Shown here: piece by piece, positions 5,250 through 54,703 of the stretch
Numbering within the stretch: position 1 is the first letter of the stretch
Layout: each line of letters opens with the position of its first letter
Origin: Dehalococcoidia bacterium
Lineage (GTDB): Bacteria > Chloroflexota > Dehalococcoidia > Bin125
Length of the DNA: 64,000 nt
Direction: 5' to 3'
Assembly (NCBI GenBank): GCA_963663235.2
Contig: CAXXNO010000008.1
Coordinates: 168,103 to 232,102 of the forward strand
Made by a program: the position numbers and the translations under genes
The notes under the pieces: model-generated
Told to the model about the DNA's origin: nothing
What the model saw: only the letters and a program-made list of their open reading frames with translations
Database searches by the model: none

Positions 5250-5282
5250 AGGCTGTGAGCCGACGAGGAGCGCGGAACAGTA

Positions 5283-6991: not shown

Positions 6992-7084
6992 CTGTAGCGG
7001 AGCCTCGCCCCCGACTCTGACCTGCCCCCCCAAAACTGATCCACGCGGAGTGAGAGGATTCCGGGGATCGGGAAGGGAGCCGGC

Positions 7085-7363
7085 ATGGCACGCAAGCGGT
7101 ACGCGGCCGAGGAGATCATCGGCAATCTGCGGGAAGCGGAAGTGGCCTTGGCCCAGGGCCAGACGATCGGAGCGGTGGCGCGGACGCTTGGGATCAGCGA
7201 GCCGACCTCTTACCGCTGGCGCCGGGAGTACGGCGGGTTGCGGGTCGATCAGGCGAAGCGGCTGAAGGAGCTCGAACGGGAGAACAGCCGCCTGAAGCGG
7301 CTGGTGGCGGACCAGGCGTTGGACAATGCGATGTTGCGAGACGTCGCAGCGGGAAACTTCTGA
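7085..7363 (+). CDS. IS3-family transposase OrfA
   Basis: HTH (YRWRREYGG) plus zipper KRLKELERENSRLKRLVAD; ends in GGGAAACTTCTGA. Confidence 0.92.
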   Translation: MARKRYAAEEIIGNLREAEVALAQGQTIGAVARTLGISEPTSYRWRREYGGLRVDQAKRLKELERENSRLKRLVADQALDNAMLRDVAAGNF

Positions 7364-8790: not shown

Positions 8791-8819
8791 GCCCATCAGG
8801 TGCTATGTCCGCTGCCTGC

Positions 8820-11710: not shown

Positions 11711-11756
11711 GCCAGGCTCTTGCGCCTTAGTGCACCGATTGGGAAGCAGCGAGGTG

Positions 11757-12162
11757 TTACCCGGCCGCGCCGGCCTCGGTTGCGAGTAAGCGGGCGGCGG
11801 GGCTAAACGCGGCGTGCGCGGCGGCCGCCTTGGCCGCGTCGTAGGTCGCCGAGTAGCGGCGCACCATGGCCGAGGTCGAGTGCCCGAGGAGGTATTGCAC
11901 GTCCAGCTCCCGGGCGTGGTTCCCGATCGCCCAGGTGGCGAAGGTGTGGCGGAAACGGTGGGGATTGGCGTGGACGCCGGCCCGGACCCCCAGGCGCTGG
12001 AAGAGCGTCCCCAAGAGGGACGGGTTCATCGGACGCCGCGGCTGCGTCCGCCGCGGGATGGTGAGGAACAGGGCTCCGGGGACCGCGCCGCGGAAGCGGT
12101 CGACGTAGTCCCGCAAGGCGCCGGCGGGCCCGGCGCCTTGCGGGACTACGCGCTGTTTGCGC
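11757..12162 (-). pseudogene. C-terminal fragment of a tyrosine recombinase (paralog of 29184-30143), cut by an IS
   Basis: HANPHRFRHTFATW..RELDVQYLLGHSTSAMVRRY, nearly identical to the intact integrase. Confidence 0.9.
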
Positions 12163-13277
12163 TGTGGCGGCCCAAAACCCTGTCCGGCGTCAGGGCGGCC
12201 CATCGGTAGACGTGATGCAAGCCGCCGAGGATAGGCTCGCCCACGACTCGCGTCCCAGGCCCGCCGCTTCCCCGGTCGCCGGCAGGGGGCGCTTGGTCGA
12301 GAGCTTGGTGCGGACGCGCCGCGTTGTAGAAGGCCACGTACTCGCGTAAGAGCCGACGGAGATGCCGCTCGTTGAGCACGATCACGTGGTCGAGGCACTC
12401 GCGGCGCAGCGTGCCGACGACGCGCTCGGCGATGGCATTCGCCTGGGGCGCGCGGAACGGGGTGCGGATCGTTTCGATCCCGATGCCCCGGGCACGCGGG
12501 ACGAAATCGCCACCGAACTTGGCATCGCGATCGCGGATTAGATAGTGCGGGTGCTGACCCCACGGGGTGGCTTCGCGGATCTGCTGCCAAACCCAAGCGG
12601 CCGTGGGGTGCCGCGTGACGTTCCAATACACGAGGGCGCGGCGGGCATGCGTGATCACGAAGAAGACGTGGAGCGTGCGGAACGTCAGCGTCTGCACGGT
12701 GAAGAAGTCGCAGGCCCAGATCTCGGCCGCGTGGAGCCGGAGGAAGGTGCGCCAGCTCGGCGAGGGCGCGGGTCGAGAGCCGTAGCGCTGGATCGTGGTG
12801 CGGCTCACGGAGAGCCCCAGCTGATGGAGTTCGCCCTGGATCCGTCGCGTTCCCCAGGTCGGGTTCTCGTGTCGCAGCCGCCGGATCAAGGCGATCACCG
12901 CCGGGTCGACGCGCGGGCGGCCCAGTCGGCGCACCCGACTCGTCCGACGCCAGTGGATCCGCCACACGGTCCGATGCCAGCGCACCACGGTGTCCGGCTG
13001 GACCAGGACGAGATGCCGCCGCCATGGGTGCCAGCCCCGGGCGAGGCGCGACCAGAAGCGCCGGTCCGAGCGTCGGCCGGCGGCCGCGGCGCTCGAAAAC
13101 CGCCAGTTGCTGCCGCAGGGCGAGGTTCTCCAGCACGAGATCCCGGCGATCGCGGCGGAGCAGCCGGAGCCCCAGGAGGAACAGGCGAAAGTAGAGCCAC
13201 ATGACCGATCTCCTCGGTCGGGAGGCTCAGCCTCACAGGGCCCTCGGGCAAGACGGACGGAGTTTTGGGCCAGTACA
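12163..13277 (-). mobile_element. Inverted, near-identical copy of the 8820-9933 IS (same frameshift plus one extra C at the stop)
   Basis: Reverse complement of 8820-9933; same termini. Confidence 0.93.
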
Positions 13278-13393
13278 GGGGTTTTGGCACCCTCCAGCCG
13301 GGCGGAGTAAGCTTCGGGGGCGGAGATGGCCTTACGGGTCGCGGGCTTCGTCTCCGACCGATCTCCGAAGGACTCGCTACGAGGGAGAATCTT

Positions 13394-26758: not shown

Positions 26759-27640
26759 ATGGCAAAAGAGATCTTCTGTGCCTTCGGAATCGACGTCGAT
26801 GCCGTCGCCGGCTGGCTGGGATCCTACGGCGGCCAGGACTCCCCGACCGACATCTCCCGCGGGGTCTTCGCCGGCGAGGTCGGAGCACCACGCCTGCTTC
26901 AACTCTTCGAACGGTTTGGCATCAAGACCACCTGGTTTATTCCCGGCCACTCGATCGAGACGTTTCCCGACGAGATGCGCGCGGTAGCCGAGCAGGGCCA
27001 TGAGATCGGCCTGCACGGCTATTCGCACGAGAACCCGGTCGCCATGACCCCAGAGCAGGAAGAGGCCGTCCTCGACAAGTGCATCGAGTTGATCGAGGGA
27101 CTAAGCGGCAGCCGCCCCCGCGGCTACGTGGCGCCCTGGTGGGAGTTCAGCCCGATCACGAACGAACTGCTGCTGAAGAAAGGGATCAAGTACGACCACA
27201 GTCTGCACCACGATGATGTCCACCCCTACTACGCCCGCGTGGGTGATCGCTGGACGAATATTGACTTCTCCAAGTCCGCAAGCGAGTGGATGAAACCGCT
27301 GGTCCGGGGGCAGGAGACCGATCTGATCGAGATTCCAGGAAACTGGTATCTCGACGATCTACCGCCGATGATGTTCATTAAGGCGGCCCCCAACAGCCAT
27401 GGCTTCGTCAATCCGCGCCATCTCGAAGAGATCTGGCGCGATCAGTTCGATTGGGTCTACCGCGAATACGACTACGCGGTCTTCACCATGACCATTCACC
27501 CCGATGTCTCGGGACGCCCGCAGGTGCTGCTCATGCTGGAGCGGCTGTATACGTACATGACCCGCCATCCTGGCGTTCAATTCCGCACCTTCGAAGAGAT
27601 CGCGGATGACTTCGCCCAGCGCAGTCCGCGCGGGGGCTAG
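26759..27640 (+). CDS. Polysaccharide deacetylase family protein (PuuE/HP0310-like)
   Basis: [43 protein letters not shown]; RBS AAGGAGG. Confidence 0.92.
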
Positions 27641-28038
27641 AGGAGAGATAGGCATGCCGGGTCGCCGGCTTGCCGTTCCAGTGCAGTCGCTCCTAAGCGA
27701 TCTTGGCCGGGTTGGCGACCGGGGCTATCATTCCTCATAGTGTCGTCGTGGCGTAGAACTTCGCACGGCATGCGATCCGTGGGAAGCCGCTTCTCTGTCT
27801 GAGCTCCGACAGCGCCGGCGAGCGAATGGAACGCACTCAGATCGTCTAGCGCCGGAGACGCCTGCTCACTTCCATTCCCACATCCTGGTGCGCGTGTTGT
27901 CGGCAGCATCGGTCTCGTGCTCGCCGATCACCAGCGTCTCGTTGAGTCGCGCGAGCTTGCCTCGTGGGAGGACAAAACCCAGGCCGACGCGCATAACAGT
28001 GGTGCCGACCATGCTGGCCGAGCTTCTGGAGGTCGGTC

Positions 28039-28135
28039 ATGCTGCTCCACCTCGGCCTGCTGGTCGCCACACTGCGGCGGGTACTGCGCTCCCGCCACGA
28101 CCTGCTCCTGGAGAATCTCACGCCCAGGCAGCAGC
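28039..28135 (+). pseudogene. rve-transposase N-terminal remnant
   Basis: RSRHDLLLENL..RQQL. Confidence 0.7.
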
Positions 28136-28139
28136 TCCT

Positions 28140-28600
28140 TAAGGACGCGCTTGAGCGTCGTTCGGCTGCCGCGCCCACGAAGGCGCTCCAAGATCTGCGC
28201 CTCCAGCATCGCGCGGGCTTGGTCCAACGGCAGACAGTCCAGAAGGGCCTCCCGGACGTGGTGTGCCTCGACGTTGGGACCCACACCGAGGACCGCGTAG
28301 CGCCGGTCGCGCAGTTCGATAGCCATGCTCGGAGGGATATCATCGAACCGACCGATCGCTTTGAGGACGCGGCGATTCTCGTGACGCCGGCCGGGTGTAC
28401 GGCGCAGCGACATGAGAATGTCCGCCGCTCCGCCCCAAGCGCTACTCCCGCGCGCTGAGTCCCCAATATCGCCCCCGCTTTTTCGACCGTGGCGGACGAC
28501 GATGACCGAAACGCCGGCCTCCGCCAGGCGAGCGACATCCCGCAACGCGGCGAGGGCTTCCCCCGAGGAGTTCTCGCCTTCGCCAGGAATCTCGGCCCAC
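28140..28600 (-). pseudogene. C-terminal fragment of an AAA_25/RepA-like (SF4) helicase of mobile elements
   Basis: VIVVRHGRK..D.ARGSSAW..AAD...L motif; no Walker A visible. Confidence 0.65.
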
Positions 28601-28961
28601 GTCGGAGCCGGGAGCGTGGCGAAGAGAGCGGCCCGCTCCTGCTTCGCCTGCAGGCAGGCGGCCGTGAACGGGGGGTGGCGGTTGTAGCAGTCAAGGAGGT
28701 AGATGAGCCCGGCGGTGTCGAGGGCGCCGGCGAGGCGGGGATGGCTGGGGAAGCGTGCGCCTTGCGGGCTCACGGCCGATCCAGTTCAGTCATACTTGAA
28801 TGATAGTTCGCCGGCGAGGCGGAGATGGCCGGGAACGCGTTCGCACCGAGGGCTCACGGCCCGCTCCAATCGTTCATAGATGAATGATAGCGATCACGCG
28901 CTCCAAAGCCCACGGCGGCACGTCCGTTCGCCCGATTGCCCTCCAGATAGCGCACGGCGCC

Positions 28962-28989
28962 AACCTCGTCCCACAATTCGCAAAATGGC
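28962..28989 (+). repeat. 28-bp direct repeat, copy 1 (copy 2 at 30417-30444, one mismatch)
   Basis: AACCTCGTCCCACAATTC(G/C)CAAAATGGC. Confidence 0.9.
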
Positions 28990-28999
28990 GAGCGGCTGC

Positions 29000-29044
29000 C
29001 TTTTAATCCGAAGGTCCAGGGTTCGAACCCCTGAGGGCCCACCA
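29000..29044 (+). tRNA. 3' half of tRNA-Lys(TTT): att-site remnant, not a full gene
   Basis: Loop CTTTTAA, T-arm CAGGG-TTCGAAC-CCCTG, acceptor 3' strand AGGGCCC-A-CCA; upstream bases cannot pair as 5' anticodon or acceptor stem. Confidence 0.88.
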
Positions 29045-29183
29045 CCACGCTTCTTTATTAGGCCGGGCTGCAATCCGGTCGAAACCGGGTCTGGAGCTTC
29101 GGACTGCAACGGTTCTGCTCCGCGATTCGCTTGACTTCATCCCCCGATCAGAGCGTCCATGGATGGGCGAAAGGGGGGCAATC

Positions 29184-30143
29184 ATGGTCGCGGAACTGGT
29201 ACTTCAGACGGACGACGGCATGGGTCTGGGGGAGGCGATCGCGGCCTACCTCGCCGCCTGCGATGTCGAAGGGAAAAGCCCCCGCACCGTCGACGCCTAC
29301 GCCGAGACCCTGCGCCGCTTCCAGGCCGTCTGCCTCGCCGAGGCCCTGCCGGCCCGGGTCGCCGACTTCCGTCCTCCCCACGTCTACGCGTTCCTCAAGG
29401 CCGTCGCCGACAGCGGCGTCTCGCTGGGCACCCGGCACCGCCGCTTCCGCGAGACCCGCGCCTTCTTCTCCTGGTGCCTGCGCATGGGCGCCTGCGCGCG
29501 CCACCCCTTCACGGGCATCGCCAACGTGCGCGTGGAGCAGAAAGTGATCCAGCCGCTCAGTGAGGAGGACATCCAGGCCCTCCTGGCGGTCTGCGATTCC
29601 GGCGACGAGTTCGGCTGCCGCAACCGGGCCATCATCTTGCTCTTCCTCGACACCGGGATGCGCTACGCGGAGCTGCACCAGCTCACCCTGGCCGACGTGT
29701 CCTGGGAGGACCGCCGGATCCACATCCGCCACGGCAAGGGCCGCAAGCAGCGGGTGGTGCCGTTCGGCGATGGGCCGGAAGCGGCGCTGCGCGGATACAT
29801 CGACCGCTTCCGCGGCGAGGACGAGGGACCGTTGTTTCTGACCATCTCACGCTGGGGGGAGTCGCGGCGCCCGATGAACAAATACCTGTTGGGCACCCTG
29901 TTCGCGCGGCTCGGCGAGCGGGCCGGCGTGCACGCCAACCCGCACCGCTTCCGCCATACGTTCGCTACCTGGGCCATCGAGAACCATGCGCGGGAGCTGG
30001 ACGTGCAATACCTGCTCGGCCACTCGACGTCGGCGATGGTCCGTCGTTACTCCGCGACCTACGATGCCGCGAAAGCGGCCGACGCGCACGCCGCGTTCAG
30101 CCCCGCGGCGCGGTTTCTGGCGAGGTCGAACGGGACCGGTTAA
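29184..30143 (+). CDS. Tyrosine recombinase/integrase (XerC/D-like size)
   Basis: Catalytic set intact: DTGMRYAE (R), GKG (K), HRFRH, LLGH, RRY; SAM-like N-terminus. Confidence 0.93.
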   Translation: MVAELVLQTDDGMGLGEAIAAYLAACDVEGKSPRTVDAYAETLRRFQAVCLAEALPARVADFRPPHVYAFLKAVADSGVSLGTRHRRFRETRAFFSWCLRMGACARHPFTGIANVRVEQKVIQPLSEEDIQALLAVCDSGDEFGCRNRAIILLFLDTGMRYAELHQLTLADVSWEDRRIHIRHGKGRKQRVVPFGDGPEAALRGYIDRFRGEDEGPLFLTISRWGESRRPMNKYLLGTLFARLGERAGVHANPHRFRHTFATWAIENHARELDVQYLLGHSTSAMVRRYSATYDAAKAADAHAAFSPAARFLARSNGTG

Positions 30144-30166
30144 CCCTCTGCTTCCCAAGCAGAGGG
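30144..30166. other. Perfect 8-bp inverted repeat with 7-nt spacer; putative recombinase core site
   Basis: CCCTCTGC-TTCCCAA-GCAGAGGG directly after the integrase stop; no U-tract. Confidence 0.6.
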
Positions 30167-30416
30167 CCCACGGCGCCTGCGGCCAGCGCATGGCTTTCCT
30201 ATCTGGGGAGGCAGACCGCACGGAATAATGAGCCCCCACAGCCCGGGGAAGCGCCCTTTGCGGTCGCTTGCATTCATCCCTGCAGCCTACGGCGGGCGCG
30301 CGTGCCCTGCGGCATGCCGGACAGCGCTGTGCATCCGCTCGGAGGTGGCCGCCCGCGAACAGACGAATGGAGCCCGCCATCGGACGACTCGCGCGGGCAG
30401 GTCACGGATCGACCCG

Positions 30417-30444
30417 AACCTCGTCCCACAATTCCCAAAATGGC
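30417..30444 (+). repeat. 28-bp direct repeat, copy 2
   Basis: AACCTCGTCCCACAATTCCCAAAATGGC. Confidence 0.9.
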
Positions 30445-30490
30445 CGACGTTCTCCCTTATCCTTCATACGACCCACTAGGGAGAACCACG

Positions 30491-32140
30491 ATGCGAATAA
30501 TCCTCATCGCTCTCTTGACGGGGATGCTGCTGCTGGCGTGCAGCCAGGGCACGGGAAGCAATACGCCCGACGATGCGGTTCCTGCCGAAACTCTGGCCAC
30601 GGACAGGAGCCATTCTTCGCGAGTCTTCCCTCGAGGAGAGACCTCGCTCGAAGAGAGGATCGCCAACTACCCCACCGTCGTCAGAGCTCGGATGACCTCC
30701 GAGTCCACCGAGGTGGTCGCCGGGGCGGGGAGGTTTGAGGGTAACTACTACGCTGCCTTGAAGTTCGACCTTGAAGTCGGTGAGTACCTGAATGGGACAG
30801 GTGCCGACAACATCACGGCGATATGGGTCGCAGCCGATGAATTCGGCACCCGCCAGGAAGCCGAAGACGCGTTGCCCGACATCCGCGCCCGAAGGGATAC
30901 GCAATGGGACAATCGGGAGGCGGTCTTCTTCCTGCAAGACCTGGGTGATGCTCAGGCTTTTCCCCTTGATGTCTTACCTACATTGCAGGGTGACAACCAT
31001 TACTACCTGTCGTTCGGTTTCTCTCAGCCCCACCGGGACGGCTACAGCCTGTCCAGCGAATACAGTAAGTTGTGGCTGCCGGCGACCGAGATCGCTTCGG
31101 GCGCTACCGGCCAGAGCGGGACCGTGCGGGACGGCCAGGAGTTCCTCCTGGCCGTCCCGACGGACCCAGCCGGTGCAGGCGCAAGTGGCGCGAGCACACC
31201 GGCGGGTCCAACGATAACGCTGGGCGACCTGAAACAGCGGCTCGCAGCTGTTACCGCTGAGCTTAGCGCCAGCGACGGCTCGGAAGAATACAAAGAATGC
31301 GTCCGGTTTAAATATCAGAATGAGCGCGAGGATAGGTACTTCATAGCCGAGGGTGAGGGTCGGCGAGTCTACGTCACGCATCCTACACATGAATTCGACT
31401 CCGGCCAGCCCGCCGGCACCACGATCTATGAAGACGAAGTCGTCAGCGCCGAATCAACTGAACAGAGATCAAGGCTCTGGTTCGATGGACGGGACTCTGC
31501 CCTATTCGATGTCGTGACTGGCGACCTCGTACCAGAGCGCTCTGCATTTACATTCACCCAGACCGTGGTCTCTGCGCGGCCGATTCCCGCAGGAGAATAC
31601 AAGGTCAATAACAATTACCTTCTGTTGGCCTTCATTCCCTGCAATCACGTCTTCACCTACGAAATGACGATGACCGTGACGGCACCCGAGGGCACTGTTC
31701 ACGAGGCGTTCTTCGATCCGGTGGTGATTGGCGCGGCGGTAGGCGCCGACGGCTCACGTGGTGTTTTGAAGCCGGCGTCGTTTGCCATCGAGGGGGTGGG
31801 CACAACAGACATCAAGCGGATCCGGTGGGAGTCAGCAAGGGTCGAGATGCAGATTGATCCGCCCGGGAGGCCCACAGGCCATCACATCGACTTCATCGCC
31901 CTAGACGGGACGGTCGTGCTGCGGCTGGATTTCGACGACGCTGTCGACGTTGTTGAGGAGGGCCGCACGCGCGCGCTGACCTGGGGGGTATGCGAGCGGT
32001 CTTGGAATGACGGAGACCTTCTGATGCTGCGCATCAGTGAAAGTCCTCCCGGCCTGACTGGCGCGACCAACGATGTGCTATGTCCCCCGCCACCGCCTCA
32101 GAACCTGACGGCTTCCTTTCCTCCACGCAGGACTCGGTGA
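30491..32140 (+). CDS. Uncharacterised lipoprotein; C-terminal fibronectin-III-like start disrupted
   Basis: Signal MRIILIALLTGMLLLA-C; ends PPPPQNLTAS, with SVTLTW continuing in another frame. Confidence 0.75.
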   Translation: MRIILIALLTGMLLLACSQGTGSNTPDDAVPAETLATDRSHSSRVFPRGETSLEERIANYPTVVRARMTSESTEVVAGAGRFEGNYYAALKFDLEVGEYLNGTGADNITAIWVAADEFGTRQEAEDALPDIRARRDTQWDNREAVFFLQDLGDAQAFPLDVLPTLQGDNHYYLSFGFSQPHRDGYSLSSEYSKLWLPATEIASGATGQSGTVRDGQEFLLAVPTDPAGAGASGASTPAGPTITLGDLKQRLAAVTAELSASDGSEEYKECVRFKYQNEREDRYFIAEGEGRRVYVTHPTHEFDSGQPAGTTIYEDEVVSAESTEQRSRLWFDGRDSALFDVVTGDLVPERSAFTFTQTVVSARPIPAGEYKVNNNYLLLAFIPCNHVFTYEMTMTVTAPEGTVHEAFFDPVVIGAAVGADGSRGVLKPASFAIEGVGTTDIKRIRWESARVEMQIDPPGRPTGHHIDFIALDGTVVLRLDFDDAVDVVEEGRTRALTWGVCERSWNDGDLLMLRISESPPGLTGATNDVLCPPPPPQNLTASFPPRRTR

Positions 32141-32333
32141 CCCTGACGTGGACTGACTTGCCCCATCTCCAAGTCGTGGCGACAGGTGCTGTCGCATTGG
32201 AGGCGAGGTGCGCGTCGTTCACCGAGCGGGGGCGAAGCCCGTCGCGCCCCGTATACGCACGCTCCGACGGGGCGTCGCGGTGTTCCTGGCGCCCCAGGGC
32301 CGGGTTGGAGCGTCCGAAGGATCGGCGGGGCCC

Positions 32334-33455
32334 TGTGGTGTCTCAGAAGTCGATCGGCATTGCCTAAATGCTTTGATCGCCGGAGCCTCCAGGCGGAGGC
32401 ACGGCGATGTGGATCTATTGGCGGCTCTTTCTGATCGCGTTGCGCCTGACGGGGCGCCGACGCCAAGACTTTGTCCTAGAGAACCTGGTGCTGCGGCAAC
32501 AGCTGGCGGTCTGGGAGCGCACGGGGCGGCGCCCGACGTTGGCGGCCGCGGATCGGCGCTTCTGGTCCGTGACCGCGCGGCACTGGCGGGGGTGGCGTCG
32601 GCATGTCCAGCTGGTGCAGCCCGCCACCGTGGTCGGTTGGCACCGGACGGCGTGGCGGCGCTACTGGGGTTGGAAGAGCCGCGGACGACCTAGGGGTCGT
32701 CCGCGCATCGATCCCATCATCCGCTGCCTGATCGTCCGGATCGGGGCGGAGAATCCGACCTGGGGCGTGCGGCGCATCGCGGCCGAGCTGGCGGTGCTGG
32801 GCCATCCGGTCAGCGCGGCAACGGTGCAGCGGTATCGCGGGGACCGCCCTCCCTCGCCCAGTTGGCGGACCTTTCTGCGCCTGCACGCGTCCGAGATTTG
32901 GGCGGCCGACTTTTTCACCGTGCAGACGCTTACCTTGCGGACGTTCTACGTCTTCTTCGTGATCAGTCACGACCGCCGCCGGATCCTGCATGGGAACGTG
33001 ACCGCGCACCCCACGGCGCCCTGGGTCTGGCGGCAGATCATCGCCGCCACCCCGTGGAACACGGCGCCTCGCTTCCTGATCCGCGACCGGGATCGCAACG
33101 ACGGCGGTCACTTCGTGCCGAAGGCGGCGGCCCTGGGGATCGAAACGATCTTGACCCCCGTGCGAGCCCCCAAAGCCAACGCGATCGCGGAGCGGGTGAT
33201 TGGCACGATCCGGCGAGAGTGTCTGGACCATCTCATCGTGCTCACGGAACGGCATCTCCGGCGGGTGCTCCGCGAGTACGTCGCCTACGACAACGACACG
33301 CGTCCCCACCAGTCTCTGGGCGACCAGCCGCCATCCGGTCCGCGGACGCCGACGCTCCGTGGTGGGGCGCAGCGCCTAGCGAGCCGGCCGATTCTGGGCG
33401 GCTTACACCATGAGTACTTCTGGGATGCAGCGTGATGAGGTTTTGAAACACCACA
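32334..33455 (+). mobile_element. rve-type IS (chimeric); transposase 32407-33435
   Basis: Ends TGTGGTGTCTCAGAAGTCGATC / GATGAGGTTTTGAAACACCACA; 342-aa full-length ORF. Confidence 0.9.
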
Positions 33456-33742
33456 GGTCTTGCCTGATTGAGCATCAACCTTGTGATTGTGGTCACAACC
33501 ATCCCGGACGAGGGGGGCACAGACACGCGTCCCGGACTCTGCAGTCGGTCTCAGGATGATCTAGACTCCCTCGAGTCGTACCGCAGGAGTTCGGGACGCT
33601 CCAGCGCATCCGATTATCGATGGGGGGCTACCTACTCGCAGATATCAGTACTCGCTTTTCCACTGTGATCGCTCGTGGCTGGCTTGCACTCGGTTGAGGC
33701 GACACAGAAATTAACCGGAGACGCTTCGGAAAGAGGGGAACT

Positions 33743-34147
33743 TTGAAGAAAACGTATTCGTCACCGGAGGGCCACTGGATCACTCCGATCAAGATCAATC
33801 ACTCGCACGGCATCAGGGCGGGGAACATGATCTTCGTGGGAGGGCAAGTCGATTTCGACGATAAGGGAAATCTGCAGCATCCGGGTGACATCGTGACCCA
33901 GACTCGCGCGGCGATGGATAACCTGAAGCGGATAGTGGAAGATCTGGGCGCCACGATGGATGACGTGGTGCAGATCAACACCTTCTATGCCGGAGAAGCC
34001 ACCGAGGAGGACTGGGTACGCTGCGCCGAGATCCGGTTCGGCTACTTCAAAGCCCCCGGCCCAACGGCTACCGGCATACACGTGGGGAAACAACTGAACC
34101 TCCCTGGTCTCATGGTGGAGGTCAATGCCATCGCGGTCGTTGATTAG
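33743..34147 (+). CDS. RidA family protein (copy 2)
   Basis: Same protein as 888-1292. Confidence 0.85.
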   Translation: MKKTYSSPEGHWITPIKINHSHGIRAGNMIFVGGQVDFDDKGNLQHPGDIVTQTRAAMDNLKRIVEDLGATMDDVVQINTFYAGEATEEDWVRCAEIRFGYFKAPGPTATGIHVGKQLNLPGLMVEVNAIAVVD

Positions 34148-34245
34148 TGGCTATGCTTCCACGGGCGTGGATGCAGTCGCATTCGCTTGAGCGATCTTTT
34201 TTCCACGGCGTTGCCGAGAACATTGAGGAATCGAGAGGGTGACTC

Positions 34246-35466
34246 ATGACACGCAGGAAGCCTATATGGTTGGCAACCGGAATCCTCGTGGCGTTTGGAC
34301 TTCTCGGCGTTGCGGCGGCGTGTGGGGACGACGAGGACGAAGCGGAACAAGCCGTCGCGCATGCAGTACCCGAGGCTGTGGACTCCAGAGCGCAGCTGGT
34401 CGCGCAGTTCCCGGCAGACGTTCAGCCCCTACTCGCGGATATTCCGGAACGCGTCATCGCGGCTCTCTGGGACGTGCGGCAGCAAGTACCGGGCACCGTG
34501 GTGTTCCGGATGTCGGCTGGTGAACTGGAAGATGCCCAAAACCGAGCGTACCGCGAGGAGTGGGGCAGAATTACGGGCTGGGAGGTTCTTCAGGCGGGCG
34601 ATTTTCCGACTCTCGCCGACGTGAAGCTCCAGGCAGAGTCGGGCAACCCAGAGTGGGATATCGTCGAATTAGGTCTCGCGAATGCCGATTTGGCAGCGGA
34701 CGAGGGTCTGCTTGAGAAGCTAGACCTCAGCCTTCTCCAGCACGCGACCGACCAGTACCCCGAAGGCTATACGTATACCGACAACTGGATCACCTATACC
34801 CAGTCCATGGTGGTCCTTGTGTTCAGGACCGATGTCTACCCGCTTGACGGCCCGCATCCTGAGATGGTCACGGACCTCTTCAACACCGCGGACTTTCCCG
34901 GTAAGCGGTGCATCTTTGGCTTTCCGCAGTACGCAGGCACGCTCGAATATGCGCTCGTTGCCGACGGGGTAGCAGTCGACGAACTGTACCCTCTGGATGT
35001 CGACCGCGCCCTGGCGAAGTTGGACACTGTCAAGGACGATGTCGTGTGGTGGGGGACCGGTGGCGAAGCGATCCAGTTCATCATCGACGGTCAGTGCGAC
35101 ATGGGGGTCGTCTGGCACGGGCGGCCGGCAATTCGGGTCCGAGACGAGCCAGACCTTCCGATCGCCGCAGTGTGGGATGGCGCCATGCTGGCCCCCGGCG
35201 CCCTGATGATTCTCAAGGACGCGCCTCACTACGACGCTGCGATGTCACTCCTCGCTTACTCGCTCACTCCGCAGAACCAGTGCGACCTGCTGAATGACAT
35301 TGGCTATGGTGTGCCGTTGGACGAGTCGTGCCTGAGCGATTTTGGGGTGGAGTGGAGCGTTACGGCAGAACACGTCGCGCAGAGCGCCAGTGACGAAGAT
35401 GCTGCCTACTATGGAGCGAATATCGACCAGCTCATCGAGAAGTTTAATGCTTGGTTGACCGGCTAG
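34246..35466 (+). CDS. PotD-like substrate-binding lipoprotein (copy 2)
   Basis: Same protein as 1391-2611. Confidence 0.85.
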   Translation: MTRRKPIWLATGILVAFGLLGVAAACGDDEDEAEQAVAHAVPEAVDSRAQLVAQFPADVQPLLADIPERVIAALWDVRQQVPGTVVFRMSAGELEDAQNRAYREEWGRITGWEVLQAGDFPTLADVKLQAESGNPEWDIVELGLANADLAADEGLLEKLDLSLLQHATDQYPEGYTYTDNWITYTQSMVVLVFRTDVYPLDGPHPEMVTDLFNTADFPGKRCIFGFPQYAGTLEYALVADGVAVDELYPLDVDRALAKLDTVKDDVVWWGTGGEAIQFIIDGQCDMGVVWHGRPAIRVRDEPDLPIAAVWDGAMLAPGALMILKDAPHYDAAMSLLAYSLTPQNQCDLLNDIGYGVPLDESCLSDFGVEWSVTAEHVAQSASDEDAAYYGANIDQLIEKFNAWLTG

Positions 35467-35700
35467 TGAGAGTGGAAGGTCCGATTTTGCGTGGTCATCC
35501 CACTGCTGAGGGACGGATCTCTAGGTGAGAGTTGTATGACGGGGCAGGGAACAACAGGAGCCTCCGTGTCGGTGTTAAGGCGGAAGTAGCGGGCCGAGAG
35601 ACGTTGCTGGACGGAGTAGATGTGTGCCTCACACCTAATGGCGACCGCTACATGATGGGGCAGTCGCGCTTCGCCTCGGCGAAGTGATTTCGAGCTTCAC

Positions 35701-36738
35701 ATGATGGGCGCCCCATTCGCTCTGAGTGTCATCAGCGACGGACGCCCAGCGCCCGGAGATCGGAACTACCAGCGACGCTTTGAGGAACTCCTGGAGGAAG
35801 CGCGCGTCGCCGATAGGCTCGGATTCCGCGGGTTTTGGACCTGCGAGCAGCATTACGCGGCCGACGATGGGCATCTGGGTGCACAGTTCGCAGCCTTGGC
35901 CGGCTTGGCGACAAGCACGTCACGGCTGCGGCTCATGACGAATACTCTGCTGTTGCCGTTGTACCAGTGGAGGCAAGTCGTTGAGCAGGCTGTCGTGGTC
36001 GATCTCCTGTCCGGCGGCCGGCTGGAGATCGGGGTCGCGGGGGGTGGCAACGAGCGCGACTTCGATATGTTCGGTGTCGACTTCCACCGGCGCGGAGAGC
36101 TCATGGAACGGGGCATTCCGTTCATACGCCAAGGACTGGTGGCGGGCGAACTCGCCGACGGGCCGGGCGGTACCCTGTTGCCAATGACCCCCCGCCCAGT
36201 GCAAGAGCGTGTCCCAATCCTCGTCGGTGGCCTCTCTCCTCCTGCTGTAGACCGCGCGGTGCGGTTGGGCGATGGGCATCTCGCTTATGACTACGAACGG
36301 TTCGAGGAGAATCTGCCGAAGTTCTGGGACAGTCAACTGCGGCCGGCGATGGACCGGCACGGTCGGTCCCTCGCAGATTTTCGATTCACGGCCACGGCGC
36401 CGTTCTGGGTGTCGGAAGATCCGGAGCGTGATTGGGAGATCCTCTACAAACCCGCCTACGCATTCCACATGGGCCAGTACCTGAAGCGCTACCGCTTCCG
36501 CACAGCGCAAGACGGCCAACAATATGTGCCGCCTGGTGTAGCCACCGACTTCCGGCGAGAAGATGTGCTCGTCGACACACCAGAGAACATCGCGCACCGC
36601 CTCCTGGCTACGTGGCGAAAAGCGCCTTGGCACGAGTTCAGCTTTTTCTGCCGACTTCCCGGTATCCCACATGAACGAACGCTGGAGCATCTTGAATTTG
36701 TAGCCCATCGACTAGTTCCGCTGCTTACCGCTGGCTGA
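35701..36738 (+). CDS. LLM-class oxidoreductase (copy 2)
   Basis: Same protein as 2846-3883. Confidence 0.9.
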   Translation: MMGAPFALSVISDGRPAPGDRNYQRRFEELLEEARVADRLGFRGFWTCEQHYAADDGHLGAQFAALAGLATSTSRLRLMTNTLLLPLYQWRQVVEQAVVVDLLSGGRLEIGVAGGGNERDFDMFGVDFHRRGELMERGIPFIRQGLVAGELADGPGGTLLPMTPRPVQERVPILVGGLSPPAVDRAVRLGDGHLAYDYERFEENLPKFWDSQLRPAMDRHGRSLADFRFTATAPFWVSEDPERDWEILYKPAYAFHMGQYLKRYRFRTAQDGQQYVPPGVATDFRREDVLVDTPENIAHRLLATWRKAPWHEFSFFCRLPGIPHERTLEHLEFVAHRLVPLLTAG

Positions 36739-36976
36739 CGTCGGCGAGACTGAGCGGGATTTCGGAGAGGCAAGGGGGTCCCTGTCGGCCGATCTTGCTG
36801 AGGGTGATCACCGGCGAACGCCTGATCTACAGGAGTCGGGATGGTGGGTTGGTGGTCCGGCCCTCATTCGACCGGAGGCGGTGTAGCGTGGACAGGACGC
36901 GTGCTGGGCAGGGAGGGCGCCGGCGCGGGCTCCACGAGATGCGCCGCGTCGATCCCCCCACCTCGGTGACCGCTGC

Positions 36977-38104
36977 ATGAGTCGATCGGCAAGCGCAGAG
37001 GGCGCCGCCGAAGTGCGCCTCGAGGGGATTCAGCACCGCTTTGGCGAAGTCTGGGCCGTCCGCGGGATCTCCCTGACAGTTAAGCCTGGAGAGTTCCTCA
37101 CCCTCCTCGGTCCGAGCGGATCGGGGAAGACCACGCTGCTCCGCATCATCGGTGGGCTCCTCCGGCCTTCTGAAGGCCGCGTGTACGTCGCCGGTCAGGA
37201 CATCACGGCCCACCCGCCTCAAAAGCGCAACATGGGCTTCGTGTTCCAGAACTATGCTCTCTTTCCCCACTTGTCGGTGTACGACAACGTGGCCTTTCCT
37301 CTGCAGATACGCAGAATGCGGCGCCAAAAAATACGCGATCGGGTGAACGAGGTCCTGACCCTGGTCCAGCTCACTGGTTTGGAGAACCGGTACCCGGCTC
37401 AGCTGAGTGGGGGTCAGCAGCAGCGCGTCTCGCTCGCTCGCGCGATCGTCTTCTATCCCAACGTCTTGCTCATGGACGAGCCGTTGGGATCCCTTGATAA
37501 GCGCTTGCGTCAGCAGTTGCAGTTGGAGCTTCGGCACCTCCAACACGATCTTGGCATCACGGCCATTTACGTCACACACGATCAAGAAGAAGCATTTGCC
37601 ATGTCTGATCGGATTGCGGTCGTGCACGAGGGAGAACTTCGCCAGCTCGATCAGCCGTCGCAGGTCTACCGGAAGCCAGGTGACTCCTTCATCGCTGACT
37701 TTGTCGGCGACCTGAACCGCTTTGAGGGAGAGCTCGTCCAGAGCAACGGTCCGACGGGTGTGTTGAGGACGTCGGACGGGATGGAGATCCTGATCAGCCT
37801 GCATGGCGTCGCGCAGGGAAGTCGACAGTTCGTCTGCGGCATCCGACCCGAGCGCGTGGAGGTCGGCGAAAACGCCGTGGGAGATAATCGCTACCGCGGA
37901 GTAGTCCGCGCTCTGACCTTTCAAGGTACCCACTACCGTTGTGAACTCGAGCTCCCGAACGGGAGGAGGGTATCCGCTTCAATCTACCGAGAAGATCCTG
38001 GAGTGCGGGAGGGGGAGGAAGTCTGGTTGGGATGGAACGCCGAGGAGGCACTGGTATTTGGCGGAGACTTCAACTCGAATGAGTCCGGCTTCAATGAGCG
38101 CTGA
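36977..38104 (+). CDS. PotA-like ABC ATPase (copy 2)
   Basis: Same protein as 4122-5249. Confidence 0.95.
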   Translation: MSRSASAEGAAEVRLEGIQHRFGEVWAVRGISLTVKPGEFLTLLGPSGSGKTTLLRIIGGLLRPSEGRVYVAGQDITAHPPQKRNMGFVFQNYALFPHLSVYDNVAFPLQIRRMRRQKIRDRVNEVLTLVQLTGLENRYPAQLSGGQQQRVSLARAIVFYPNVLLMDEPLGSLDKRLRQQLQLELRHLQHDLGITAIYVTHDQEEAFAMSDRIAVVHEGELRQLDQPSQVYRKPGDSFIADFVGDLNRFEGELVQSNGPTGVLRTSDGMEILISLHGVAQGSRQFVCGIRPERVEVGENAVGDNRYRGVVRALTFQGTHYRCELELPNGRRVSASIYREDPGVREGEEVWLGWNAEEALVFGGDFNSNESGFNER

Positions 38105-38137
38105 AGGCTGTGAGCCGACGAGGAGCGCGGAACAGTA

Positions 38138-39022
38138 ATGCAGAGAGCGCTCACGCTCCAGAAGACGATCGTGCAGCCTCGTACGCGCAACGCACTTCTG
38201 GCAGCGTGTCTCCTGGGTCCCACGCTTGTCTTGCTCGGCGTTCTGTTCGTCTACCCTCTTGTCGACGGTGTGTTGATACGAAGTTTTTCTGATCCTGAGG
38301 TGGGGTTTCAGAACTATACGCGTCTCTACAGTTCTGTAGCATTCCGGAACATCCTGCGACTCACGTTCGAGATAGCGTTGTACACGACGCTGGTGTGCCT
38401 ACTTCTTGCGTATCCATTCGCTTATTTTCTAACGACACTGCCGAAGCGGCGTGCACAATTCTTTTTGGCGCTCAGCCTCGTTCCATTCTGGACCGCGATC
38501 CTCGCCCGCCTTTATGCCTGGACAGCGATATTAGGGCGCCGCGGTATCATCAACGATTGGTTGATAGAGGCCAACCTTATCGATGAGCCGATCGATCTTC
38601 TGTTCAACCGTACCGCGGTGATCATCGGCATGGTCCACATTCTGCTTCCATTCATGATCATCATTCTCTATTCCACCATGATCGCGATCGACCGCGAGCT
38701 GCAAGATGCTGCAAGAAGCCTTGGAGCCAGCGGCTTTCAGACCTTTCGGCGTGTGTTCCTCCCACTCTCGATGCCTGGCGTCTACGCGGGTGTCCTCCTG
38801 GTCTTCATCATCTCGCTTGGATTTTTCATCACACCGGCTGTGCTGGGTGGCGGGGGCGACATCACTATCGCCATTTTCGTCCAACAGCAGGTGAGCATCT
38901 TGAATTGGGGCGTGGCTAGCGCCATGAGCATGGTGCTGCTCGTGGTTACAATCATTCTCTTCTTCGTATTCAACCGATTGTTCGGCGCCGAGCGGATGGT
39001 AGCGGGAGCCTTGCGCGGATGA
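38138..39022 (+). CDS. PotB-like permease (copy 2)
   Basis: Same protein as 5283-6167. Confidence 0.92.
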   Translation: MQRALTLQKTIVQPRTRNALLAACLLGPTLVLLGVLFVYPLVDGVLIRSFSDPEVGFQNYTRLYSSVAFRNILRLTFEIALYTTLVCLLLAYPFAYFLTTLPKRRAQFFLALSLVPFWTAILARLYAWTAILGRRGIINDWLIEANLIDEPIDLLFNRTAVIIGMVHILLPFMIIILYSTMIAIDRELQDAARSLGASGFQTFRRVFLPLSMPGVYAGVLLVFIISLGFFITPAVLGGGGDITIAIFVQQQVSILNWGVASAMSMVLLVVTIILFFVFNRLFGAERMVAGALRG

Positions 39023-39846
39023 CCGTGGTGCGCAGAGTCAGCCCTATGAGAGTCGTTCTCTACATCGTCTTCGTGGGCGTGCTCATCTTCTTGTTCCTGC
39101 CGCTTATCGTGGTGATTCCCATTTCGTTCAACCCCGGAACAGTATTGCGGTTCCCTCCCGATGGCATCTCGTTGCGCTGGTACAACGACTTCTTTGGCGA
39201 TCAGCGCTGGCTCGACGCTGCGTGGCTGAGCCTGCGCCTTGGCATCACCGTAGCCATTCTTGCAACCGTGTTAGCGCTCGGAGCCGCCGTCGCCCTGACG
39301 CGCTTCGTGACCGTGGGGAAGCCGCTGCTGCGGGCATTGATCCTGTCACCCCTCATCGTCCCCCTCATCGTCACGTCCATCGCCGTCTTCGAAGTCTTCA
39401 ATGAACTCGGTCTCCTGCGATCTTTCTGGGGGCTCGTTCTTGCTCACACGATTTTGGCTCTGCCATTTGGCGTGATCATTATCGAGAGCGCATTGAGGAA
39501 TTTCGACGTCACGCTGGAAGAGGCGGCTATGAGTCTCGGGGCGTCGCGCCTGGTCGCGTTCCGCAGGATCACCGTGCCGTTGATCGCGCCAGGTCTGTTC
39601 GGCGCAGCGGTCATCGCCTTCATTACTTCATGGGACGAAGTGGTTATGGTTCTGTTCGTCGGCGGTGCCAGGAACCAGACTCTCCCGGTCAGAATGTTTC
39701 AGTTCCTCGAGACGCAGATTCGTCCGACGATTGCGGCGATTTCGACGCTCTTGATTGTCGCGTTGCTGATAGCCCTTGTTCTCCGTCAACTCTTAATCCT
39801 TCGCCAGCGGCGCCGGATGGGTTCTGTCAGATCTCAGGGCTCGTAA
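39019..39846 (+). CDS. PotC-like permease (copy 2)
   Basis: Same protein as 6164-6991. Confidence 0.92.
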   Translation: MTVVRRVSPMRVVLYIVFVGVLIFLFLPLIVVIPISFNPGTVLRFPPDGISLRWYNDFFGDQRWLDAAWLSLRLGITVAILATVLALGAAVALTRFVTVGKPLLRALILSPLIVPLIVTSIAVFEVFNELGLLRSFWGLVLAHTILALPFGVIIIESALRNFDVTLEEAAMSLGASRLVAFRRITVPLIAPGLFGAAVIAFITSWDEVVMVLFVGGARNQTLPVRMFQFLETQIRPTIAAISTLLIVALLIALVLRQLLILRQRRRMGSVRSQGS

Positions 39847-39872
39847 CTGTAGCGGAGCCTCGCCCCCGACTC

Positions 39873-40025
<153 letters not shown>

Positions 40026-41150
40026 TGTGGTGTTTCAAAACCCTATCGGCCTTGTGTGAGTCGCGTCCGCCAGAGAGTCTTCGCGCGGAGGGACGGCGAT
40101 GTGGCTCTATTGGCGACTGTTTCTGGTCGGGCTGGGAATGCTCGGCCGGCGGCGACGGGATCTGATCCTCGAGAACCTAATTCTGCGCCAGCAGCTGGCG
40201 GTGTGGGAACGGTCCGGACGTCGACCGCGGCTCCAGACGCGCGACCGCCGGTTCTGGTCCGTCACGGCGCGGAACTGGGCCGGCTGGCGTGCGCATCTGC
40301 AGCTCGTTCAACCGGCGACCGTCATCGGGTGGCATCGGTTTGTCTGGCGCCGATACTGGCGCTGGAAGAGCCGGGGCGGTCAGCCCGGCCGGGTGCGGAT
40401 CGATCTGGAGACGCGCCGCCTGATTGACCGGCTGGCAGCGGAGAATCCCACGTGGGGCGTGCGCCGCATCGCAGCCGAGTTAGCTGTGCTGGGGCACCCC
40501 GTGAGTCCCACAACGGTCTATCGTTATCGCCGAATCAGGCCGGCGCCGTCGCCCACCTGGCGGACCTTTCTGCGCCTGCATGCCCCCGAAATCTGGGCGG
40601 CCGACTTTTTCACCGTGCAGACGCTTACCTTGCGGACGTTCTACGTCTTCTTCGTGATCAGTCACGACCGCCGCCGGATCCTGCATGGGAACGTGACCGC
40701 GCACCCCACGGCGCCCTGGGTCTGGCGGCAGATCATCGCCGCCACCCCGTGGAACACGGCGCCTCGCTTCCTGATCCGCGACCGGGATCGCAACGACGGC
40801 GGTCACTTCGTGCCGAAGGCGGCGGCCCTGGGGATCGAAACGATCTTGACCCCCGTGCGAGCCCCCAAAGCCAACGCGATCGCGGAGCGGGTGATTGGCA
40901 CGATCCGGCGAGAGTGTCTGGACCATCTCATCGTGCTCACGGAACGGCATCTCCGGCGGGTGCTCCGCGAGTACGTCGCCTACGACAACGACACGCGTCC
41001 CCACCAGTCTCTGGGCGACCAGCCGCCATCCGGTCCGCGGACGCCGACGCTCCGTGGTGGGGCGCAGCGCCTAGCGAGCCGGCCGATTCTGGGCGGCTTA
41101 CACCATGAGTACTTCTGGGATGCAGCGTGATGAGGTTTTGAAACACCACA
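40026..41150 (+). mobile_element. Full-length rve-type IS; transposase 40099-41130
   Basis: 17-bp perfect TIR TGTGGTGTTTCAAAACC / GGTTTTGAAACACCACA; 343-aa ORF; no TSD. Confidence 0.95.
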
Positions 41151-41624
41151 GGGTGCTCCTCGACTCCATGCGCAGCGAGCACCGGGACAAGCACGCCGCC
41201 CGGCGCTTCCTGCGGCGCCTGGTCGAGGTGGCCGAGCGCAAGCCAGAGCGCGTCACGACGGACAAGCCTCCGCCGTACCGCAGAGCGATCCGCTGGATCC
41301 TGGGACGGAAGGTCGTGCACCGGACGAATCCATACCGCAACAATCCCACGGAACAGGACCACCGCGCGGTGCAGCAGCGCTATTATCCGATGCTCGGTTT
41401 CGGGAGCTTCGCCTCAGCGGCACGCTTCTGCTCGGCGTTTGAGGAGCTCCGCCAGTACTTGCGCGCTCGCGGTCGCCGCGGCGAGGGCGTCCCCCTGGCC
41501 GAGCAGCGACGACGCTTCGTCGGGCGCTGGCATGCACTGATCGCCGAAATGGCGGCGGCGTAGACAGGGCAACAGTGAGGGGGCTTCACTGCGCGTCATC
41601 CGTGCCCTGAGTTCTGACAGAACC
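41151..41624 (+). mobile_element. 3' half of an IS6-family element
   Basis: LLDSM..RDKHAARRF, TTD, EQDHR, GFGSF; IR CCCTGAGTTCTGACAGAACC. Confidence 0.88.
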
Positions 41625-44527: not shown

Positions 44528-44681
44528 CACACCACCTGTCCGGTCTGTCCCATCACCGAGTCGAAGCGACAGGTACTGGTCTTCTGGGGTAAGGGTCAGG
44601 CGGTAAATCCTGCTGTGTGGACAGCGCTCGTACTAGGGTCCCGCTGGGCGTCCCGCCAAAAGCCAAACTGGGAGTATCCAC

Positions 44682-45925
44682 TGACCTGCCCCCCCAGAAC
44701 CGGTCCAGATCCTGTGCGAGGATTCGGGCCGGTGCGAAGGGAGTCGGCATGGCACGCAAGCGGTACGCGGCCGAGGAGATCATCGGCCACCTGCGGGAGG
44801 CGGAGGTGGTGCTCGCGCAGGGGGAATCGGTCGCGCCGGTCGCGCGCCGCCTCGGCGCGGCCGAGCCAACGTATTACCGCTGGCGGCGGGAGGACGGGGG
44901 GCTGCGGGTCGACCCGGCCAAGCGGCTGAAAGAACGGGAGCGCGAGAACAGTCGGCTGAAGCGGGTGGTGGCCGATCAGGCGCGGGCCAACGCGATGGTG
45001 CGGGACGTCGCAGCGGGAAACTTCTGAGCCCGGCCAAGCGGCGCCGGGCGACATCCTACCGCACGGACCCGTACGCGGTGGCGGAGCGGCGGGCCTGCCC
45101 GGTCACCGGCCAGGCGCGGGCGACACAGCGCGACGTGCCCCGGCCGTCCCCGGATGCGCCGGCGCTGATCGCGCGCAGCGTCGCGCTGGCCCCCCGCTGC
45201 GGCCGCTACGGCTCCCGTCGCATCACGGCCCGGCTGCGCCAGGCGGGCTGGCGGGTGAACCCCAAGCGGGTCGAGCGGCGCTGGCGTCAGGAAGGCTGGC
45301 GGGTCCCCGGGAAGCACCCCCAACGGGGCCGCCGCTGGCTCGCGGCCGGCTCGCGGGTGCGGCGGCGGGCCGAGCGGCCGTCCCACGTCTGGTCCGACGC
45401 CTTCGTCTTCGACCGCACCGCCGAGGGGCGCCCGGTGCGGATCCTCGCCCTCGTGGATGAGGACCACCCGCGAGGGCCTGCGTCTCGACGTCGCCCGCCG
45501 ACGGCGCCGCGACGACGGCCTGGCGCGGTTGGCCCAGCTGTTCGTCGAGCGCGGGCCGCCGACGTTTCTGCGGTCCGCCAACGGCCCGGCGTGCACCGCC
45601 ACCGCGGTACGGGACTGGCTGCACCGGGTCGGGGGCACGACCCGCTTCATCGAACCGGGCAGGCCTTGGGCGAACGGCTCTGGGGAATCGTTCAACGGCA
45701 AGCTGCGCGACGCGTGCCTCAATCGCGAGCGCTTCGACACCCTGCTGGAAGCCCAGATCCTCATCGCGGGCTGGCGGCGGGAGGACAACCCGATCCGCCC
45801 CCACCGTGCCCTCGGCTACCGCCCCCCCCGCCCCGGAAACGCAGCAACCCCGGGAACCGTCCCATGACGCGCGTCCCGGCGATCGGACTCACTTAACGAC
45901 TGGTACAACGATCGGGGGCAGGTCA
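44682..45925 (+). mobile_element. Degenerate IS3-family element (relative of 7018-8259)
   Basis: Same termini; orfA 44749-45027; orfB has catalytic SDNG changed to SANG and the same frameshift. Confidence 0.92.
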
Positions 45926-54527: not shown

Positions 54528-54703
54528 GGATCCCAAAGAGCCGCCGCAGCGCCTAGGCCAAGTAGCGTGCCAGGTCGGTACCGTGGCTGTAGGAGTGATT
54601 GGAGGGAACGGGATCCGGACGCGGATCGAACGTCCCCTCGGCGATCTCGGTCGCGCGGACCTGCGCAGCGCCTTAGACTCTCGGCGCTTGAGAGGCGGCA
54701 CCA

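Follow-up and report, generated by a model that had tools for sequence, protein, structure and literature searches.

The last 64 kb of contig C8 of the Dehalococcoidia assembly GCA_963663235.2 (G000; 2.75 Mb, 14 contigs, 68% G+C, 92% complete), hereafter referred to as the window, were analyzed around int2, a tyrosine recombinase gene that lies between two anticodon-loop-like sites. We consider it likely that int2 is the integrase of the second island in a tandem array at tRNA-Lys(TTT), and that it carries a second core of the tRNA-Gly(CCC) type that recombined in the past. Comparisons were made with the complete relative genome G001, the further relative genomes G005 and G002, homologue loci (L-numbers), and, at a likeness of at least 90%, assembled Logan contigs from four public runs of community sequence. 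The features on which this reading is built are as follows, in window coordinates unless a contig (C-number) is named.

1-28999, plus strand: body of island 1, which starts before the window, directly after the intact tRNA-Lys(TTT) gene at C8:166355-166430.
28990-28999, plus strand: left half of the Lys site, carried by the element (GAGCGGCTGC); it shows no complementarity to the right half.
29000-29044, plus strand: tRNA-Lys(TTT) 3' fragment, the attachment (att) repeat between islands 1 and 2.
29045-29183, plus strand: leader of int2, bearing the TTGACT (29131-29136) ... GAGCGTCCATG motif seen across the family, and GGGGGG as a ribosome-binding stretch.
29184-30143, plus strand: int2, an intact gene for a Xer-like tyrosine recombinase of 319 amino acids (Phage_integrase and SAM-like N-terminal domain).
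30144-30166, plus strand: tRNA-Gly(CCC)-type core, CCCTCTGC (30144-30151)-TTCCCAA (30152-30158)-GCAGAGGG (30159-30166).

The left site, GGCTGC-CTTTTAA-TCCGA, was located at 28994-29011 as an earlier, sequence-only preliminary description had given it, with two halves that are indeed not symmetric. The fragment that begins here runs from the loop CTTTTAA (29000-29006) through the variable loop, the T arm, and the acceptor strand to CCA. It corresponds to C8:197102-197146 (plus strand) and matches the host tRNA-Lys(TTT) at 44 of 45 nucleotides (1 mismatch), a likeness far above chance. The intact gene is on the same strand, 1.7 kb before the window start, and the fragment lies 30.7 kb downstream of it. 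The left half GAGCGGCTGC agrees with the 5' side of the tRNA itself at 7 of 10 positions, counted by eye. No whole tRNA was reported in the 64-kb window by ARAGORN, and an Rfam scan of 27000-32000 at E values up to 1 returned no tRNA and one chance microRNA match, such fragments being too short for Rfam.

Along C8, the order is intact tRNA-Lys, an int1 pseudogene, 30.7 kb of DNA, the Lys fragment, int2, and further DNA. int1, which lies outside the window next to the intact tRNA-Lys and has the same leader as int2, is frameshifted just ahead of its HRFRHT motif. The two cassettes are 79.7% identical over 1,192 nucleotides, and this homology begins exactly at the Lys loop (28986) and stops exactly where the Gly arm ends (30166). 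Besides int1, island 1 contains ABC-transport and oxidoreductase cargo and many insertion sequence (IS) copies; both islands hold transport and oxidoreductase genes among many IS copies. The locus thus shows what Islander-type islands show: a full tRNA gene with a same-strand 3' fragment downstream, an integrase (int1) inside, and a length of 30.7 kb, within the 2-200 kb range.

Position 29000 is a boundary in other genomes as well. The copy in G005 encodes a protein 99.7% identical to int2, and its DNA is 98.9% identical over 2,662 nucleotides starting from exactly 29000, with unrelated sequence to the left. Community contigs from three of the four runs (X8, X10, and X1) break at 29000, and their left ends read like tRNA-Lys 5' halves. 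With these breaks, and with all Gly fragments starting at TTCCCAA, the att sites are centered on the anticodon. Close homologues (L006 and L013; 80-81%) are situated directly downstream of an intact tRNA-Lys(TTT). Further Lys fragments, each followed by an integrase copy, occur in G000: the copy on C11 is an intact gene, and that on C3 is partial and lies at the contig end. Beginning at the loop, the left flanks of these fragments match neither one another nor the tRNA. When the native flank of the G000 tRNA-Lys was sought with the flanks in G001 and G002, no nucleotide-level synteny was seen.

ATG 29184 is the likeliest start of int2, as it is preceded by the GGGGGG stretch and the paralogue alignment runs from there. 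PF00589 (Phage_integrase) matches residues 132-300 with 123.2 bits (cut-off, 27.1; E value, 1.3e-35; profile positions 3-169 of 172), and SAM-like N-terminal domains start at residue 29 (Pfam). Reading the translation by eye gave the motifs RNRAI, HGKGRKQR, HRFRHT, and LLGHS...VRRY, candidates for the catalytic Arg..Lys..His-x-x-Arg..His/Trp..Tyr residues. The NCBIfam XerC, XerD, and XerA models cover nearly the full length with scores far under their cut-offs (XerC, 146.6 bits versus 335.15; XerD, 139.1 versus 329.6), and the integron-integrase model TIGR02249 (65 bits; cut-off, 265) aligns with residues 32-208 alone. The top PDB matches are a XerC-like protein, XerA, and XerD. Taken together, the domain, NCBIfam, and PDB matches point to a two-domain Xer-like tyrosine recombinase with no room for a lambda-type arm-binding domain, and they uphold the compact, Xer-sized recombinase of the preliminary description. 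Per genome, 2 intact and at least 10 broken or fragmentary integrase copies were counted; relatives have many copies, too.

The right site begins 1 nucleotide after the TAA stop (30141-30143) and is a perfect dyad, and no T arm follows it in the window, both as previously noted. Its spacer had been ascribed the form of a Gly-CCC anticodon loop. This proves apt, as 20 of 20 nucleotides (TCTGCTTCCCAAGCAGAGGG) equal the anticodon arm plus GGG of true tRNA-Gly(CCC), as found in intact genes of related genomes (L074, L085, and L086), which is far above chance. ARAGORN reported no intact tRNA-Gly(CCC) in the 14 contigs of G000. Behind the int1 stop come six bases, TTCCCAA, and the remaining 3' part of tRNA-Gly in full, as far as the acceptor strand, where an IS copy begins. 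G000 holds seven tRNA-Gly(CCC) pieces, all starting at the loop. An integrase tail followed by TTCCCAA was found seven times in G000, at L013, and three times in G005; in an eighth G000 copy (C4:34584), the integrase remnant lies approximately 165 nucleotides upstream of TTCCCAA. The loop is unchanged in all 12 integrase-adjacent copies seen, and what follows TTCCCAA varies:

Full Gly 3' part: int1, C14, and C4:34584.
Arm, then CCCACGG: int2, L013 of G001, and two G005 copies.
Arm, then TTTGCC: L097 of G005.
Decayed Gly-like DNA: C4:941361 and C4:943499.
Unrelated DNA straight from the loop: window position 11739 and C4:484841.

The left sides of C14 and L013 are alike (81%) and their right sides differ, and the right sides of int2 and L013 are 98% identical; unrelated GC-rich DNA gives a baseline of 40-60% in these global right-flank comparisons, and clear cases alone are cited. 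Variation of the DNA beyond the spacer, which the preliminary description had proposed to look for, is therefore present at both the Lys and the Gly sites. A third site had been placed behind a paralogue at 11739-11750; it is there, on the minus strand:

11750-11739, minus strand: third site, GCTGC-TTCCCAA, behind an integrase 3' fragment.
11739-12161, minus strand: 3' fragment of an integrase paralogue (approximately residues 187-310), ending TAA-CACCTCGCTGC-TTCCCAA, then unrelated DNA.

The variable DNA past the Gly loop is what strand exchange in or beside the loop would leave. Given the 20/20 match to the tRNA-Gly arm and the Gly 3' part or other DNA behind it in the paralogues, the right site is best read as a tRNA-Gly-type attachment core that recombined in the past, and as neither a chance hairpin nor a typical terminator. 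For the present day it is a candidate site only, and the enzyme that once acted there may have been int2 or that of another clade. Two degenerate patterns for the integrase tail plus TTCCCAA had 0 matches in metagenome contigs.

Homologues of int2 come almost only from metagenome-assembled genomes of Dehalococcoidia/Chloroflexota. Of the 69 homologues of nearly full length, 13 are followed on the same strand, 100-255 nucleotides downstream, by a non-intact tRNA 3' fragment (5 Lys-TTT, 2 Gly-TCC, and 6 Gly-CCC; degenerate pieces are missed, as the scan demands a perfect T stem), 6 have an intact tRNA upstream (3 Lys and 3 Met), and 1 has an inverted intact tRNA-Gly(CCC) downstream, while upstream and downstream tRNA pieces together occur in none. 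ARAGORN alone reported an additional tRNA-Val upstream of L055. The neighbor tRNAs of the family clades are Lys(TTT), Gly(CCC), Gly(TCC), and Met(CAT), with fragments starting at the anticodon loop, and the idea of sites derived from more than one tRNA stands at this family level. Whatever the tRNA, GAATCT, CAATTAG, and tandem TTTCACCCCG-like repeats recur in the 75 nucleotides upstream of the fragments. The tRNA label clusters on a quick 63-row tree (15 changes; mean of the shuffles, 21.1; none of 200 shuffles as low), and int2 falls in a five-row clade (support, 99), four rows of which are beside Lys. In G001, tRNA-Lys and tRNA-Gly(CCC) each have same-strand fragments tens of kilobases downstream and therefore arrays at both genes; in G002 there is a single clean tRNA-Gly(CCC), and tRNA-Lys is present as two inverted copies.

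Two further loci deserve mention. At L008 (OZ244557.1), a tRNA-Lys 5' half stops in the anticodon loop, and unrelated DNA and a 68% homologue of int2 come after it; the same genome has two intact tRNA-Lys genes that are inverted relative to each other and separated by 125 kb. In the complete genome OZ240228.1, at least eight integrase copies (L020, L022, L028, L030, L031, L037, L064, and L083) lie in one orientation within 154 kb (538-692 kb), with Lys fragments between some of them, and form a very long tandem array.

From the family, the homology breaks, and the established biology of tyrosine integrases, strand exchange would be expected inside the 7-nucleotide anticodon loop, with the two anticodon stem halves as putative core binding sites of int2. 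The element-borne tRNA-Lys 3' part would restore a whole tRNA after integration. The left site would be the att repeat at the junction of islands 1 and 2, followed by the conserved leader and then int2. A Gly(CCC)-type core would have been carried against the stop codon by the int2 lineage, and past recombination would have brought in the Gly 3' part or other DNA. The sites had been said to mimic tRNAs; they are instead pieces of tRNA genes, left or carried by integration.

Several observations weigh against this picture of a second island with a second core. A distal Lys fragment closing island 2 was not found on C8, which ends in repeats 35 kb further on, and neither an excised circle nor an empty target site was seen among the assembled Logan contigs. 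The int1 and L013 copies are both pseudogenes, and the tandem array may therefore be fixed. At the left site, the asymmetry of the halves counts as well. At the right site, the perfect 8-bp dyad is confined to the window and is imperfect in the three other lineages compared, with L013 and C14 differing by one mismatch or by an added base; as a conserved feature of close copies, the dyad thus did not hold up. The G005 core has 2 uncompensated changes in 23 nucleotides and 0 in the following 1,434, and the close relatives C11 and L006 are without a Gly core. The int2 clade otherwise goes with Lys, and identity to the clade that goes with Gly(CCC) is only approximately 46%. That a single enzyme uses both tRNAs is accordingly unproven.

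The DNA on either side of the cassette contains a repeated motif and a cargo gene:

28955-28989, plus strand: arm motif D2a (..CTCGTCCCACAATTCGCAAAATGGC), ending 10 nucleotides before the Lys loop.
30167-30241, plus strand: 75 nucleotides after the Gly core, also present in G001 (L013) and G005 (L100 and L102).
30410-30444, plus strand: D2b, a second copy of the arm motif, 89% identical to D2a; these are the sole two copies in the assembly.
30445-30462, plus strand: junction after D2b (CGACGTTCTCC-CTTATCC).
30491-32140, plus strand: predicted lipoprotein of 549 amino acids (MRIILIALLTGMLLLAC...) with no Pfam or NCBIfam match, cargo beside int2.

Look-alikes of D2a stand directly upstream of Gly(CCC) fragments in L057 and L046. 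Past the 75 nucleotides come 121 nucleotides common to C12 and then D2b. The left part of the junction (GACGTTCT.C) resembles the left half of the G001 Lys repeat (L094). A decayed tRNA-Lys fragment after D2b was considered and rejected, with a local alignment no better than those of shuffles (1,364 of 2,000 as high). The lipoprotein gene is contiguous with int2 in G005, too, so the two are together in two genomes. Community contigs with a variant of it, approximately 3% divergent, depart from the window sequence to the left of 30459 and to the right of 32151, and the summed depths of the module 30459-32151 reach 1,200-5,000 (X8 and X10) versus 5-8 for unique island DNA; these sums take in all contigs at ≥90% likeness and are not copy numbers. 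The divergent flanks and high summed depths indicate that a close variant of the lipoprotein gene also resides in other, far more abundant contexts of the same communities. The earlier proposal of cargo capture is not supported: the lipoprotein gene travels with the integrase in two genomes, but its junction is beside D2b and not at the Gly dyad.

The right site can be read in more than one way. It is possible, though we would not count on it, that the Gly arm is an inert scar, left by one old ancestral event, copied along with the gene, and now at most a hairpin. A single origin is enough, as all core-bearing copies have the integrase tail; the arms drift, with one or two uncompensated mismatches in L013, C14, and G005; many copies are pseudogenes or fragments; and the Gly core sits 6-11 nucleotides from the stop with no family-typical arm region in between, versus the fragments of other clades, which lie 100-255 nucleotides downstream behind repeated arm motifs. 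Against such a scar, no fewer than four distinct continuations start precisely at the edge of the loop or precisely after GCAGAGGG, a pattern not predicted by random decay, and the invariance of TTCCCAA in 12 of 12 integrase-adjacent copies argues in the same direction.

Rather unlikely, in our estimate, is a minimal integrase cassette, in which the 1.17-kb unit from Lys loop to Gly loop would have two working tRNA-derived attachment cores. Such a unit might be the constant arc of a small circle entering tRNA-Lys or tRNA-Gly(CCC)/Gly-like secondary sites; alternatively, the Gly core might be a docking site at which other elements or cargo join behind the integrase. Either form, if true, would explain the origin of composite islands and the switches of tRNA target in the family. 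The conserved unit shared by int1 and int2 spans exactly loop to loop. The DNA joined on the left changes at the Lys loop, and that joined on the right changes at the Gly core or past it. Short relics consisting of only an integrase tail and TTCCCAA occur here and there in G000 and G005, as the right ends of elements that entered through this core would. Within 400 nucleotides, C3 has a degenerate tRNA-Gly(CCC), a second Gly fragment, a Lys fragment, and an integrase copy. Community contigs show joints of the integrase 3' end (30113) with the Lys fragment (29005) and of D2 plus 15 nucleotides with TGC-TTCCCAA; these joints are at ≥90% likeness, with unknown letters between, and may belong to other organisms. 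The cargo of island 1 sits between the int1 Gly fragment and D2a, and an 18-nucleotide look-alike of the right flank of the Gly core abuts D2a (11 of 2,000 shuffles equal or better), a match chosen after being seen. Two working cores are opposed by the loops themselves, alike at 3 of 7 positions only and flanked by differing half-sites, by the Lys affiliation of the int2 clade, and by the lack of a conserved dyad or, in C11 and L006, of any core. In addition, the int2/L013 version has no T arm, so entry would not restore a tRNA-Gly.

Two further explanations fare worse. That the dyad is the transcription terminator of int2, with its tRNA-Gly likeness due to chance, is highly improbable. It has a GC-rich stem, folds with 10 pairs and a 3-nucleotide loop, and begins 1 nucleotide past the stop. 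However, it is followed by CCCACGGCGCC with no T run, a terminator scan reports nothing there, and the fold is unexceptional (z-score, -1.58; 13 of 200 shuffles fold equally well). int1 has no dyad at this place but the full tRNA-Gly 3' part, and 20 of 20 nucleotides are identical to a real tRNA-Gly(CCC); a terminator is already contradicted as the sole explanation. There is equally little to be said for int2 as a housekeeping Xer protein for chromosome dimer resolution, or as the invertase of a local switch, in place of an island integrase. Its length and domains are Xer-like, and the inverted tRNA-Lys copies in G002 and the tRNA-Lys 5' half ahead of the homologue in L008 would suit inversion. 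Against this role stand the XerC/XerD scores far under cut-off, two far more distant Xer-like genes on C6 of G000, the multiple copies in this genome and in relatives, and the position of these copies next to tRNA fragments and not a dif-like site.

As an island integrase, int2 can be set beside several known systems. In pSAM2-type actinomycete elements, the integrase gene reads towards an att segment that extends from the anticodon loop to the tRNA 3' end. The same arrangement is seen in 13 of 69 homologues and in int1 with its Gly fragment. The int2 locus differs from this type in phylum and tRNA, in a core 6-11 nucleotides from the stop in place of one behind an arm region, and in the lack of any visible excisionase or replication genes next to int2. 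In some clades, a small open reading frame follows the integrase (L025, 4935-5050; MQPACLTPEEAARVLGIGRTFVYQLL...), which we take to resemble an excisionase-type helix-turn-helix protein; nothing like it follows int2. With XerC, XerD, and XerA, int2 shares the two-domain build and its best NCBIfam and PDB matches, but it scores far under their cut-offs and is multicopy, with tRNA fragments and cargo, not dif. Integrons likewise pair a tyrosine recombinase gene with an adjacent recombination site that has variable DNA behind it; in contrast, the int2 gene is read towards the site, the sites are tRNA derived, no attC-like repeats were found, and the integron model scores under its cut-off.

The Islander paper counts 2,083 of 3,919 islands as anticodon centered, lists 125 tandem arrays, and presents anticodon-centered attP sites and tandem arrays as common among tRNA islands. 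The C8 array resembles them in the intact tRNA with a same-strand 3' fragment, the adjoining integrase, the identity from the anticodon loop on, and the probable tandem layout; it differs in the short Xer-like int2 (319 amino acids), the core of a second tRNA at the stop, and the far end of island 2, which was not found. The ssrA islands of Dehalococcoides, according to McMurdie et al. (2011, PMC3146451), use the large serine recombinase DsiB and repeats of the tmRNA gene. They occur in the same bacterial class and are arranged in tandem behind a small RNA gene with direct repeats, and the 3' end of their integrase gene overlaps the repeat, all likenesses to the int2 arrangement; int2 is instead a tyrosine recombinase at tRNA-Lys/tRNA-Gly, unlike DsiB at tmRNA.

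int2 is an uncharacterized member of the well-known class of tRNA-targeting island integrases with anticodon-centered sites, and the suggestion of an undescribed system does not hold in kind. What is unusual about it is that a further core, derived from another tRNA, adjoins the stop codon. A limited literature search found no account of this family of short Xer-like integrases, which build large tandem arrays at tRNA-Lys and tRNA-Gly in Dehalococcoidia, where the published island system is that of the serine recombinase at the tmRNA gene. Clades with similar arm motifs lie beside different tRNAs, and in one lineage a single gene is flanked by cores from two. The family therefore lends itself, as a natural series, to studying changes in the tRNA that an integrase targets. 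An active second core, if it is one, would provide a simple route to island accretion.

A Gly core acquired by homologous exchange with a distant integrase of the Gly clade was rejected, as int2 is 80% identical to the core-less L006 over residues 1-313. The leader between 29049 and 29146 has 22 differences in approximately 100 nucleotides from the G005 copy, compared with 4 in the integrase gene and 0 in the next 1,434 nucleotides, which looks like a local (mosaic) replacement. On C3, L003 (7930-8023) is a tRNA-Gly(CCC)-like gene with an intact 3' part and approximately 16 extra 5' bases (by eye), negative in ARAGORN; the second, degenerate Gly fragment, the Lys fragment, and the integrase copy come after it.

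The integrase fragment at 11739-12161 is cut by an IS copy at 12162/12163. Two inverted IS copies (99.8% identical; rve_3 transposase) at 8819-9933 and 12163-13278 bracket 2.2 kb with this fragment and look like a composite transposon. Near the right end of island 1 lies a short repeat, of which no other copy in the assembly turned up in the comparisons made:

28725-28890, no strand assigned: tandem 84-bp unit in two copies, 76% alike.

The last 10.3 kb of the contig (53574-63858) are 99.9% identical to the start of C12, and the assembly is unresolved there. A 0.96-kb IS6-type element (53574-54528) is present in several copies, and a 1.25-kb IS (44681-45925) recurs across contigs, frequently at their ends, in approximately 20 nearly identical copies, whole or partial. 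A 7.7-kb block with an IS481-like element and genes for a RidA-like protein, a solute-binding protein, a luciferase-like monooxygenase, and an ABC transporter occurs twice with 97.5% identity, once per island (1-7145 and 32333-40025), and a third copy of its IS lies at 40026-41152.

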